Shown: piece after piece, positions 2,918-3,582 of the stretch | Position numbering within the stretch: the first letter of the stretch is position 1 | How the letters are laid out: each line of letters begins with the position of its first letter | NCBI GenBank assembly: GCA_019428855.1 | Contig: JAHYJV010000002.1 | Coordinates: 1,917 to 65,916 of the forward strand | Direction of reading: 5' to 3' | Source of the DNA: Patescibacteria group bacterium | GTDB taxonomy: Bacteria > Patescibacteriota > Minisyncoccia > JAHIHE01 > JAGLIN01 | DNA: 64,000 bases | Made by a program: the position numbers and the translations under genes | Notes under the pieces: generated by a model | Database searches by the model: none | Told to the model about the DNA's origin: nothing | Seen by the model: only the letters and a program-made list of their open reading frames with translations

Positions 2918-2969
2918 TTTACATATATCCTTTTTTCTCACGGCCGTGAGAAAAAAGGATATATGTAAA
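2918..2969. repeat. Perfect 52-nt palindrome with GC core CTCACGGCCGTGAG (upstream of the wHTH gene)
   Basis: TTTACATATATCCTTTTTTCTCACGG|CCGTGAGAAAAAAGGATATATGTAAA. Each half is the exact reverse complement of the other. The core is GC-rich in an AT-rich context. Confidence 0.7.
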
Positions 2970-3016
2970 AAATAAATTAATAATCGATATAATTATAATA
3001 TTTAATAAAAAATATT

Positions 3017-3547
3017 ATGAAGTTACTAATTACTGACAAATTTTTACTAAATTTATATAGCTATACTGAAAAGCTAGATAAAACTTTTGATATTTTTGCA
3101 TATAAAACAATTCAAGAAGCCTACTGTCCGTCTCTTTATGACTTAAAAAAACAATACGAAAGAGAAAAGAACAAACAAATATTTAGTCAATTAATTTATC
3201 GTCTGAAAAAAAATGGGTATATCAAAATTACAAATTTAAAAAACAATAAAGGAGTCGTCTTGACCCAAAAAGGAGCTGAAAAAGTTTTAAGAGCTAAACT
3301 CAAGACGGAAAAGAAAAGGAAAAGAGCCGACAAAAAATGGCAAATGATAATTTTTGACATTCCTGAAGAAAAAAGATACCTAAGAGATTTACTTCGAGAG
3401 AAGCTTCGAGCACTAGAGTATCAAATGCTTCAGCAAAGTATCTGGGTTTGTCCATACGATGTTCAAAAAGAAACTGAGATTTTATTAAGAGAGCACTCTA
3501 TCGATCCATATGTGAAAATATTTTTAATAGAGGAAATAGAGTTATAA
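3017..3547 (+). CDS. Small basic protein with an N-terminal winged-helix-like region and a C-terminal Cas2/VapD-like segment; putative regulator
   Basis: 176 aa. The N-terminal segment (..LIYRLKKNGYIKIT..KGVVLTQKGAEKVL) resembles a wHTH. The C-terminal segment (WQMIIFDIPEEKRYLRDLLREKLRALEYQMLQQSIWVCPYD) resembles the Cas2 N-terminal motif (YDI..D.RR..L...L...G.R.Q.SV). Assignment is from motif recall only. Confidence 0.55.
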   Translation: MKLLITDKFLLNLYSYTEKLDKTFDIFAYKTIQEAYCPSLYDLKKQYEREKNKQIFSQLIYRLKKNGYIKITNLKNNKGVVLTQKGAEKVLRAKLKTEKKRKRADKKWQMIIFDIPEEKRYLRDLLREKLRALEYQMLQQSIWVCPYDVQKETEILLREHSIDPYVKIFLIEEIEL

Positions 3548-3582
3548 CCTTTTTACTCACGGCCGTGAGTAAAAAGGTTATA
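3543..3582. repeat. Perfect 40-nt palindrome with the same CTCACGGCCGTGAG core (overlaps the stop of the wHTH gene, 30 nt before leuS)
   Basis: TATAACCTTTTTACTCACGG|CCGTGAGTAAAAAGGTTATA. Second copy of the core seen at 2918..2969. Confidence 0.7.

Follow-up and report, generated by a model that had tools for sequence, protein, structure and literature searches.

A PaaX-like gene of Patescibacteria framed by twin perfect palindromes, probably the cognate binding sites of its product

In REP/REPIN-RAYT systems cognate palindromes lie on either side of a gene, different paralogues have different palindrome families, solo copies are found between genes and the elements are inherited vertically. 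In the RTP-Ter and ParB-parS systems the gene of a small dimeric DNA-binding protein lies beside its own palindromic sites and other sites are scattered, some of them intragenic; in these systems each chromosome has a single protein with a single family of sites, linked to the terminus or origin of replication. The Cas2-fold domain is usually viewed as a dimerisation or scaffold module. PaaX is the repressor of the phenylacetate pathway in E. coli. Its operator is 39 bp long (TGATTC-N27-GAATCA), and it acts as a repressor at its own promoter too (PMC9493321).

The locus described here lies in the window, by which we mean the whole 64-kb stretch of DNA that was analysed. Two perfect palindromes bracket the gene of a 176-aa protein, which is entered at NCBI as hypothetical protein K0B03_00405 of a Patescibacteria MAG. 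The gene has TatD, a metallophosphoesterase and LeuS as neighbours, and leuS follows downstream in the same orientation. The features are the following:

2918-2969, no strand assigned: upstream palindrome, 52 nt, perfect, arms of 26+26 nt, no loop
2988-2993 and 2994-2999, plus strand: candidate -10 elements, two adjacent TATAAT hexamers, as read from the sequence
3017-3547, plus strand: gene of the 176-aa protein with wHTH and Cas2-like (PaaX_M) domains, from the open reading frame and Pfam
3128-3301, plus strand: winged-helix region, about residues 38-95, from AF2 secondary structure and hhalign, boundaries approximate
3320-3532, plus strand: Cas2-like PaaX_M domain (PF20803), residues 102-172, beta-alpha-beta-beta-alpha-beta fold
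3543-3582, no strand assigned: downstream palindrome, 40 nt, perfect, arms of 20+20 nt, centre between 3562 and 3563
3612-7610, plus strand: leuS, 1332 aa, with inserted NUDIX and Ham1 domains

A preliminary description of this DNA had reported twin perfect palindromes which flank the gene, the second overlapping its stop codon shortly before leuS, and a core without any further copy in the window. Position and perfection of both palindromes were confirmed, the reading frame lies between them, and the core CTCACGGCCGTGAG occurs exactly twice in the 64 kb even when two mismatches are tolerated (dinucleotide shuffles expect 0.00 copies). When 20+20 symmetry was scored at every position of the window both palindromes reached 20/20, the next best position 17 and most positions 3-8. 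No short-range inverted repeat of the 64 kb is longer, save one imperfect pair (77%), and no other of such length is perfect. Between the two copies the identity is 85-90%, and each difference is mirrored in the opposite arm of the same copy. The conserved 2x20-bp site within the upstream palindrome is found at 2924-2963, and its centre, between 2943 and 2944, is 73 nt away from the ATG. The TAA stop codon of the gene (3545-3547) belongs to the left arm of the downstream palindrome, and a gap of 29 nt separates the end of this palindrome from the leuS ATG (3612), so that transcription into leuS must cross the palindrome or begin at it. Folded as single-stranded DNA the upstream palindrome has a free energy of -22.9 kcal/mol (z -11.8) and the downstream palindrome one of -16.2 kcal/mol. 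The TATAAT hexamer aligns with TACAAA, CATAAA and TATAAG about 20 nt before the ATG in an alignment of orthologous upstream regions; the candidate pair was not ranked by a simple promoter scan of the plus strand. We infer that these hexamers would put the right arm of the upstream palindrome at or beside the -35 region.

Residues 102-172 of the protein match PF20803 (PaaX_M, "central Cas2-like domain") with an E value of 2e-21, over the 24-bit cut-off. A Foldseek search of the PDB with the AlphaFold model returned E. coli W PaaX (8a39) as best match and then many Cas2 structures. Both the winged-helix N-terminus with a Cas2-like C-terminus and the pointer to PaaX models given in the preliminary description were therefore right. 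The hhalign comparison aligns residues 33-166 to residues 36-166 of E. coli PaaX; a sequence search of the PDB with the 176-aa protein gave nothing significant, and only the fold search was informative. Overall the AF2 model has a pLDDT of 70 and a pTM of 0.41 with a poorly defined N-terminal half, and the Cas2-like domain reaches a pLDDT of 80-88. The winged-helix region is modelled as a helix, a beta-hairpin wing (69-71/80-82) and a helix, and is presumed to be the reader of the palindrome arms.

Like PaaX (PDB 8a39, 3l09) the protein consists of an N-terminal winged helix followed by the Cas2-like PF20803 domain, and the long palindromic operator of PaaX (~39-40 bp) has its counterpart in sites which are symmetric over 2x19-20 bp. 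Unlike PaaX it ends at residue 176, just past PaaX_M, and has no PF08223 match, that is, no phenylacetyl-CoA-binding PaaX_C domain. The PaaX equivalog model TIGR02277 aligns residues 53-170 with profile positions 34-150 of 279 and gives 37.6 bits, the cut-off being 264.55. No paa catabolic genes were found beside the gene, where TatD, the metallophosphoesterase and LeuS are located, or beside its paralogues, which have other housekeeping genes as neighbours. The sites are symmetric over their full length with a conserved CG-RY-CG centre, whereas the PaaX operator has a non-conserved N27 spacer. Further differences are that several orthogonal paralogues are present per genome, that the FDIPE Asp is retained and that the Cas2-like domain appears to read DNA.

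With Cas2, many structures of which are among the Foldseek matches, and with VapD the protein shares the ferredoxin-like beta-alpha-beta-beta-alpha-beta fold, and its motif FDIPE-KR...LQxSIW is similar to the Cas2 consensus YDI..KR...VQxSVF. It stays, however, below the cut-offs of the Cas2 models (TIGR01573, 22.9 vs 24.5 bits; PF09827, 20.2 vs 23.8 bits), the domain is fused to a winged helix, and two fixed palindromes are present instead of a repeat-spacer array. Tandem Repeats Finder detected no CRISPR-like array in the window, in agreement with what had been stated before, and housekeeping genes are the neighbours in the window and at 76 homologous loci. The matches from PHROGs and PADLOC were all weak and pointed to Cas2 or to families of unknown function. 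Within the Cas2-like domain the codons of D114 (in FDIPE), R120 and Q140 are found at 3356-3358, 3374-3376 and 3434-3436. D114 is invariant in 21 of 21 sequences, and motif comparison suggests that it is the equivalent of the Cas2 catalytic-type Asp. This residue is lost in E. coli PaaX; an enzymatic role is possible, which speaks against the regulatory model put forward below.

The gene together with its sites forms a module which recurs across the Patescibacteria phylum and was previously unreported; in the literature on PaaX, Cas2-like proteins, Patescibacteria and palindromes we found no description of it. The close homologues number 261, nearly all of 174-177 aa, the homologues as a whole have a uniform length of 174-190 aa, and 2,208 members of a library of 50%-identity representatives score E<=1e-10. 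Patescibacteria often have several paralogues per genome, and at each locus two palindromes of its own are present, exactly 2x20 bp in size and centred on CG-RY-CG; the first precedes the start codon and the second overlaps the stop codon. In 438 kb around 76 homologues, 52 of the 80 long zero-loop palindromes are of the kind with a CG[AG][TC]CG centre, flanking the gene. Pairs are present at at least 34 loci with a median spacing of 641 nt, and the identity is 84% between the copies of one locus as against 46% between loci. Pairing amounts to 0.8-1.0 at arm positions 1-19 and 0.60 at position 20 and falls to the background of 0.3-0.4 beyond; in some loci the symmetry reaches 26-28 nt per arm. 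Even at the freely varying positions 5-7 and 11-16 the symmetry is 78-92%. Such symmetry exceeds what an operator typically needs and fits hairpin-forming or self-templating elements, an observation that goes against our main model.

The upstream site is found 16-109 nt before the start codon, and of 32 upstream copies nine have a -10-like hexamer that begins at right-arm position 16, six of them with an extended TGn. The centre of the downstream site lies 14-15 nt past the stop codon in about half of the homologous loci, and the start of the next gene is at a variable distance of 21-497 nt from the site. The downstream site is thus in register with the stop codon of the regulator and not with the start of the next gene, and is therefore not simply the operator of the next gene. 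The gene order TatD-X-LeuS is kept in the loci L002, L006 and L081/L010, and other paralogues adjoin LigA, ThyA, FemAB, ThiI and others; the operons beside the modules include leuS, ligA, thyA-tmk-dut and cell-wall genes. The arm sequence TATAACCTCTTT is common to the window, L006, L010 and the downstream copy of L002, the upstream copy of L002 being different. This retention among orthologues argues that the sequence of the arms is read and not just their pairing.

Protein and site vary together. Residue 140, at the beta-hairpin tip of the Cas2-like domain, is Q (rarely A or H) in 26 loci, 23 with a GGCC centre and three mixed, and K or R in 31 loci, 25 with a GATC centre, six mixed and none with GGCC. 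There is no contrary case in these 57 loci, and Fisher's exact test for residue 140 against the centre (CGGCCG or CGATCG) gives 5e-13. On a neighbour-joining tree residue 140 and the centre need nine changes each, which coincide at every tip, and these approximately nine independent co-switches include ones inside the LeuS, LigA and ThyA synteny groups. Residue 120 likewise follows site position 4, with K in 13 of 14 cases of G and R where A predominates (p 1.6e-8). A mutual information analysis of wHTH residues against arm positions yielded nothing clean beyond the phylogenetic signal. Because of this residue-site coevolution we are confident, as far as comparison of sequences can tell, that the palindromes are the cognate binding sites of the 176-aa protein, with the Cas2-like half apparently reading the centre of the site. 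Of the paired operators postulated in the preliminary description the binding part is strongly supported by the covariation of residues 140 and 120 with the centre over about 57 loci; autoregulation and control of leuS would be the presumed outcome.

The form in which the DNA is recognised may be judged from the palindromes themselves. Symmetry extends to the very centre (89% at position 1), although a hairpin would have no need of it in its loop; asymmetric centres are found in both orientations, and the mismatches are split into 75 G:T and 59 A:C. These three properties suggest that the duplex rather than a hairpin is recognised. The protein, which would be a minimal PaaX relative made of a winged helix and a Cas2-like dimerisation domain without the ligand-binding C-terminal domain, most likely forms a dimer with two-fold symmetry that binds the 40-bp palindrome in duplex DNA. 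The Cas2-like dimer on the dyad would read the CG-RY-CG core by means of the residue-140 hairpin tip and of residue 120 at the start of helix alpha1, the T-tract at positions 8-10 would shape the DNA, and recognition of the outer arms, which differ between paralogues, would fall to the two winged helices. The upstream site would abut the promoter of the gene and give negative autoregulation, as with PaaX at its own promoter. Protein bound to the downstream site could block read-through from the gene, or initiation, into leuS, or alternatively could loop to the upstream site. Both autorepression and the gating of transcription into leuS are what we infer from this arrangement. We favour the model as a whole, cognate binding together with transcriptional control, with some reserve, and the chances that the outcome of binding is transcriptional control of the kind proposed appear about even.

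Sites also occur singly, between genes, between convergent genes and inside genes, and solo sites whose arms match those of gene-flanking sites are found on other contigs of the same metagenome. They are few: each metagenome has no more than a handful, the sequence examined contains roughly one extra site in every 60 kb, and the 64-kb window has none besides the pair. Convergent genes enclose a site at L112 (leuS>site<cysS) and at L106; intragenic sites are found in queA and in a GT2 glycosyltransferase gene, and the solo copies in genes lie in frame. We considered that a palindrome had been inserted in frame into queA, and rejected this explanation: the orthologues have a segment of equal length, in one case with a co-varied palindrome. 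Searching for a hidden homologue beside the solo sites by tblastn (genetic codes 11, 4 and 25) and by an HMM search of all ORFs, we found the gene adjoining only 3 of 28 metagenome sites, of which several lie at locus edges and at least 16 have more than 700 nt on each side. No remnant of a decayed gene was detectable between the two sites of L108, and no tRNA or Rfam RNA was found that would account for the solo sites. Solo sites between convergent genes or inside ORFs, where no promoter is expected, run counter to the main model. In the window itself there is one weak candidate:

31815-31854, no strand assigned: possible degenerate solo site of another paralogue, CATAGTGTCTTTTGATGCTGTCGCATGCCAAGACACTATT, 14/20 symmetric

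It lies inside a Peptidase U32 gene and its outer arms (ATAGTGTCTT / AAGACACTAT) match those of paralogue-adjoining sites in other genomes (L008, L011); it may be a solo site of another paralogue and stands outside our core claim.

The solo sites raise the question whether the protein binds the palindromes as a chromosome-organising, bridging or roadblock factor and not as a gene regulator; ParB-parS, MatP-matS, Noc and the RTP-Ter pair of B. subtilis would be parallels. If so, the sites around the gene would simply be part of a scattered set. The positions between convergent genes and inside coding regions fit this reading, as do the absence of a sensor domain from the protein and the intragenic queA site, whose palindrome has been preserved through compensatory changes in an orthologue of no more than 70% identity (L114). 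As in RTP-Ter and ParB-parS, the gene of a small DNA-binding protein, here a putative dimer, lies beside its own palindromic sites and further sites are scattered. Unlike in those systems several orthogonal paralogues are found beside unrelated housekeeping operons, which is hard to fit with a single architectural role; in addition a subset of the upstream sites overlaps -10 elements and the site density seems low. We regard both the organising role and such an origin of the bracketing sites as unlikely.

The palindromes could also be hairpin or cruciform elements which are maintained or dispersed by a Cas2-like nuclease, in functional analogy to REP/REPIN-RAYT. The full symmetry at freely varying positions is in favour of this, with a covariation of 0.739 as compared with 0.195 after shuffling (0 of 500 as high), and so are the invariant Cas2-type Asp, the in-frame solo copies inside genes and a site (L116) which has a 45-nt insert, itself palindromic, exactly at its centre. 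The likeness to REP/REPIN-RAYT further comprises the flanking cognate palindromes with a separate family for each paralogue, solo copies that include ones between convergent genes, and vertical inheritance. However, the protein is not a HUH Y1 transposase: neither Pfam and NCBIfam matches to IS200/IS605-like transposases nor a HUH motif were found in the 176 aa, there is no Tyr transposase and no viral relatives are known from our searches. The palindromes are perfect and loopless, they are symmetric at the very centre where a loop would be unpaired, and the twin copies follow no orientation rule. Many scattered copies had been named in the preliminary description as the mark of a generic REP-like repeat; further copies do exist in related genomes, yet they are of low copy number and specific for a paralogue, which is the pattern of a small binding-site set. 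Moreover solo sites and modules are kept in position across diverged species and hence give no sign of recent mobility. An element of this sort is in our view quite unlikely. As the Cas2-like domain keeps the catalytic-type Asp and recognises the exact centre, it might nick or process the palindrome, be it duplex, cruciform or hairpin, in a new REPIN-RAYT-like pairing of an element with a Cas2-fold enzyme. To this we assign only a small chance; if true it would be relevant to how a Cas2-fold protein was first tied to palindromic repeats.

At the level of RNA the palindromes might act as hairpins in termination, RNase III processing or mRNA stabilisation, a role which we consider improbable, and it is just as doubtful that the RRM-like Cas2 fold recognises the loop of its own mRNA hairpins for post-transcriptional autoregulation. 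Transcription of the downstream copy is certain, its register with the stop codon that it overlaps is fixed, the stems of 18-24 bp are very stable, the coevolving positions 1-4 would form the loop and its closing pairs, and according to the titles of the PDB matches the Cas2/VapD relatives include RNases. Against these points, wobble pairs are not favoured among the mismatches counted above, the sequence of the arms and not merely their pairing is kept among orthologues, and asymmetric centres occur in both orientations. Where a -10 element lies over the right arm, transcription from that promoter leaves out the upstream copy. On neither strand is the hairpin followed by a U-tract, and Rfam over 2600-3700 gave only sub-threshold generic hairpin matches. 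An intrinsic terminator was likewise considered and discarded: on both strands the T-run precedes the GC core and the A-run comes after it, the wrong way round for such a terminator, and a terminator scan reported nothing but a weak minus-strand match, whose tail is ACTCTATTTC. The bidirectional terminator suggested in the preliminary description is not supported, given this order and mismatches without a G:U bias.

The further proposal, a small cassette with the gene inside and the twin palindromes at its ends, either mobile or inserted recently, is extremely unlikely and largely refuted: palindrome-gene-palindrome was duplicated as a unit into paralogues, and a variable gene (metallophosphoesterase or 233-aa hypothetical) parts the unit from its neighbours in different relatives, but synteny groups are kept across species with only 56-80% protein identity, the paralogues within one genome are old and have diverged, the palindromes lack the consistent orientation of terminal inverted repeats (12 pairs are better as direct repeats, seven as inverted repeats, 19 are ties), no transposase or integrase is present, neither these nor relatives of the 176-aa protein were found in viral contigs, and solo sites exist without the gene.

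The genomes of the Patescibacteria (CPR) are tiny and, to our knowledge, almost nothing is known about gene control in these organisms. Our analysis delimits a large family of small proteins (2,208 clusters) with its DNA sites and adjoining operons and provides a simple recognition rule, in which Gln at residue 140 goes with GGCC and Lys or Arg with GATC. It also gives a concrete handle on how a Cas2-like fold may interact with palindromic DNA, and it suggests that a Cas2-fold domain reads DNA sequence at a dyad, which would be new for the PaaX family. Synthetic biology could make use of the orthogonal protein-site pairs as compact parts.

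The gene for the 176-aa protein is flanked by twin perfect palindromes and followed by leuS, as the preliminary description had claimed:

2918-2969: upstream palindrome, perfect, 52 nt
3017-3547: 176-aa ORF between the palindromes, its stop codon within the left arm of the downstream palindrome
3543-3582: downstream palindrome, perfect, 40 nt
3612-7610: leuS, starting 29 nt past the end of the downstream palindrome

Both palindromes contain the core CTCACGGCCGTGAG, and the claim that the window holds no further copy also stood: there are two occurrences even with up to two mismatches, and shuffled sequences are expected to give none. 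When every window position was scanned for 20+20 symmetry, both palindromes scored 20/20, the next best sequence 17 and the bulk 3-8. The search for further sites in the window found none beyond the gene-flanking pair. The copies differ at a few positions, and each difference is mirrored by the other arm of the same copy. A 58-aa ORF without a family match (2792-2968) ends in the upstream palindrome (...FSHGREKKGYM); it is probably spurious, because FSHGREK is one reading frame of TTTTCTCACGGCCGTGAGAAAA.

Residues 102-172 of the protein match PF20803, the "PaaX protein central Cas2-like domain" of Pfam (E 2e-21). The AlphaFold2 model, built from 21 homologues (pLDDT 70 overall, 80-88 across the C-terminal domain), predicts helices and a beta-hairpin wing followed by a beta-alpha-beta-beta-alpha-beta domain, and Foldseek against the PDB places E. 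coli W PaaX (8a39) first, followed by many Cas2 structures and a VapD. These three results bear out the winged-helix-like N terminus and Cas2-like C terminus proposed earlier; of the Cas2 and PaaX profile searches suggested with that proposal, PF20803 matched, but the Cas2 models scored slightly below their cut-offs. The PaaX equivalog model gave only a partial match (37.6 bits versus a cut-off of 264.55). In hhalign, residues 33-166 align to residues 36-166 of E. coli K-12 PaaX, and the protein ends where the ligand-binding domain of PaaX would start; it is thus the counterpart of PaaX's DNA-binding and dimerisation modules, minus the sensor. The motif FDIPE..KR...LQxSIW, invariant in the family, closely resembles Cas2, whereas E. 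coli PaaX has LSEGL at the place equivalent to FDIPE.

A first database search returned 261 close homologues in Patescibacteria MAGs, nearly all of 174-177 aa. The exhaustive profile search yielded 5,159 cluster representatives with E<=1e-3, of which 2,208 reached E<=1e-10; most are 170-200 aa long. Scanning one genome per species confirmed 365 loci, with two or three paralogues in many genomes. Around 76 distinct loci (438 kb of DNA) there are 80 zero-loop palindromes with arms of 12 nt or more; 52 of them are centred on CG[AG][TC]CG, and almost all palindromes with this centre flank the gene. Under a relaxed criterion of at least 15/20 symmetric positions we find 92 sites in 56 loci, with a pair in at least 34 loci at a median spacing of 641 nt. 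The centre of the upstream site lies 16-109 nt ahead of the ATG; that of the downstream site lies 14-15 nt past the stop codon in about half of the loci, and the left arm's outer TATAG/TATAA therefore includes the stop codon. Two copies of one locus are 84% identical, compared with 46% between loci, and the sites of paralogues in the same genome differ clearly. In some loci a third copy of the locus's own site lies 670-1600 nt from the flanking pair (L052 at 2271, 2940 and 3554; L036 at 2634 and 4211; such handles denote loci from other genomes or metagenomes).

The symmetric zone measures 2x19-20 bp: numbered outward from the centre, positions 1-19 pair at 0.8-1.0 and position 20 at 0.60, with a background of 0.3-0.4 beyond. 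Conserved are CG at 2-3, A/G at 4, TTT at 8-10 and T at 17, while from locus to locus positions 5-7 and 11-16 are free to vary (0.05-0.4 bits) and are still 78-92% symmetric. For 119 sites aligned without gaps the covariation score is 0.739; shuffles give 0.195 (0/500 as high) and slid controls 0.14-0.21. The score is partly circular, since the sites had been picked for symmetry. The symmetry scores at CG-RY-CG centres are clearly bimodal, and the sites therefore form a distinct class. Their 40-bp span matches that of the E. coli PaaX operator, TGATTC-N27-GAATCA, of 39 bp (PMC9493321).

A mutual-information screen of protein alignment columns against site positions picked residue 140, paired with position 1. 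This residue is the x of L-Q-x-S-I/V-W and lies in the Cas2-like domain, at the beta2-beta3 hairpin tip.

Residue 140 and site centre in 57 loci, including homologues just 35-45% identical, and within synteny groups (X, gene for the homologue; mixed, GGTC/GACC)
Q (also A, H): 26 loci; GGCC 23, GATC 0, mixed 3
K or R: 31 loci; GGCC 0, GATC 25, mixed 6
TatD-X-LeuS: window, L002 and L006, Q with GGCC; L010, K with mixed centres
Peptidase A24-X-LigA: L004 and L017, Q with GGCC; L001, K with GATC; L009, R with mixed centres
NUDIX-X-ThyA: L007, Q with GGCC; L011, R with mixed centres

Fisher's exact test gives 5e-13 on these non-independent loci. In a neighbour-joining tree built from 44 proteins, parsimony requires nine changes for each trait, residue and centre agree at every tip, and switches also occur within the orthologous synteny groups. 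Residue 120 opens helix alpha1; it is K in 13 of the 14 loci with G at position 4, and R where position 4 is mostly A (38/42 not G; p 1.6e-8). Covariation at both residues links protein and palindromes as cognate partners and points to the Cas2-like domain as the part that reads the site core.

Four results speak for a symmetric dimer that recognises duplex DNA: symmetry extends into the centre (89% at position 1), which in a hairpin would be an unpaired loop; asymmetric centres are found in both orientations; the 242 mismatches show no wobble bias (G:T 75 versus A:C 59); and orthologues keep the arm sequence, beyond mere complementarity. Other features are also compatible with some structural or mutational contribution, for example template switching within quasi-palindromes: the variable positions are fully symmetric, some loci have arms of up to 26-28 nt, and the single-strand folds of the window palindromes are very stable (-22.9 and -16.2 kcal/mol). 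Moreover, a near-palindromic insert of 45 nt, itself centred on GGCGCC, interrupts an intragenic 40-bp site in queA (L116, 540-620) precisely at the midpoint, resulting in a nested quasi-palindrome of about 85 nt with the reading frame kept.

A metagenome scan with TTTNCTCACGGCCGTGAGNAAA gave 28 loci, in all of which the match is a site of this kind, symmetric over 40 bp; only three of them lie next to a homologue of the gene, and for at least 16 there is ample sequence to either side. Several contigs of a single metagenome can share sites with the same arms, as in Ga0265316, where one pair of GGTGAKSTTTTCTCACGG brackets a homologue (L098) and four more sites are solo. Solo sites lie between co-directional genes (in L110, 51 nt ahead of thiI), between convergent genes (in L112, leuS>site<cysS) and in frame within queA and a GT2 glycosyltransferase gene, where the site is read as ..FSHGREK..; the intragenic and convergent positions would also suit architectural or roadblock roles. 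We rejected the queA site as an insertion, since orthologues carry a segment of equal length; one 70% identical (L114) keeps the palindrome with compensatory changes, and another (L115) has lost it. The preliminary description had considered many scattered copies, as in a generic REP-like repeat. Further sites do exist in relatives, but at low density (an additional site about every 60 kb in the examined loci), and they look like a small set of predicted binding sites per paralogue. Gene-flanking, paralogue-specific palindromes are shared with REP/RAYT systems, whereas the module lacks a transposase and high copy number.

Several other palindromes were observed. In the window, a 14/20-symmetric sequence at 31815-31854, in frame in a Peptidase U32 gene (31396-32700, minus strand), has outer arms (ATAGTGTCTT / AAGACACTAT) matching sites of other paralogues in other genomes, and may be a degenerate solo site of a paralogue encoded outside the window. 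In the queA gene of L087 (2376-2420) a GC-rich palindrome of another kind, CGTAGGGGAGGGTTTTAAACCCTCCCCTACG, codes for 14 aa inserted in frame, SVGEGFKPSPTRGK, which the closest queA relatives share and more distant ones lack; this suggests in-frame insertion of palindromic elements into genes of this organism. L108 has two different sites of the module's type 761 nt apart (6825-7586), separated by several short GC-rich hairpins and without an ORF of at least 70 aa, a detectable gene remnant or an Rfam hit in between. The sites at 329 and 377 of L105, 48 bp apart with unlike arms (ATAGACACTTT, ATAACCTCTTT), may be tandem sites for two paralogues.

The modules are embedded in runs of housekeeping genes that share one orientation and keep their synteny (TatD-X-LeuS; Peptidase A24-X-LigA-GatCA; NUDIX-X-ThyA-Tmk-Dut; Mur ligase-DegT-X-FemAB), and single cases precede genes for malic enzyme, ThiI, UvrC, a class II tRNA synthetase, transketolase and the CCA-adding enzyme. 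In the window, leuS encodes 1332 aa with NUDIX (residues 462-561) and Ham1/ITPase (986-1169) inserts in the synthetase and, between them, about 200 aa without a Pfam match; its relatives carry NUDIX and Ham1 in L081, NUDIX and a serine hydrolase in L112. A -10-like hexamer begins at right-arm position 16 in 9 of the 32 upstream copies, with TGn in six of the nine; the window has TATAAT at 2988-2999, and in its group the palindrome end adjoins the presumed -35. From this overlap and adjacency we infer negative autoregulation, in which the protein at the upstream site would repress its own gene. The downstream site is fixed in register to the stop codon of the regulator, not to the next gene. 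Protein bound there would most likely stop read-through into leuS, cover a weak leuS promoter lying in the 29-nt gap, or form a loop with the upstream site.

In its working the module would resemble a PaaX-type repressor with its operator. It differs from PaaX proper in lacking the C-terminal domain and nearby paa genes and in scoring far under the equivalog cut-off, and from Cas2 in its sub-threshold scores and housekeeping neighbours; no CRISPR-like array was found in the window, in agreement with the earlier claim as far as the array is concerned. Full-text literature searches found no description of the protein family or the palindromes. We regard the family as sensor-less PaaX/Cas2-like predicted DNA-binding proteins whose fully symmetric 40-bp sites bracket their own gene, with a simple recognition rule that would reside in the Cas2-like domain.
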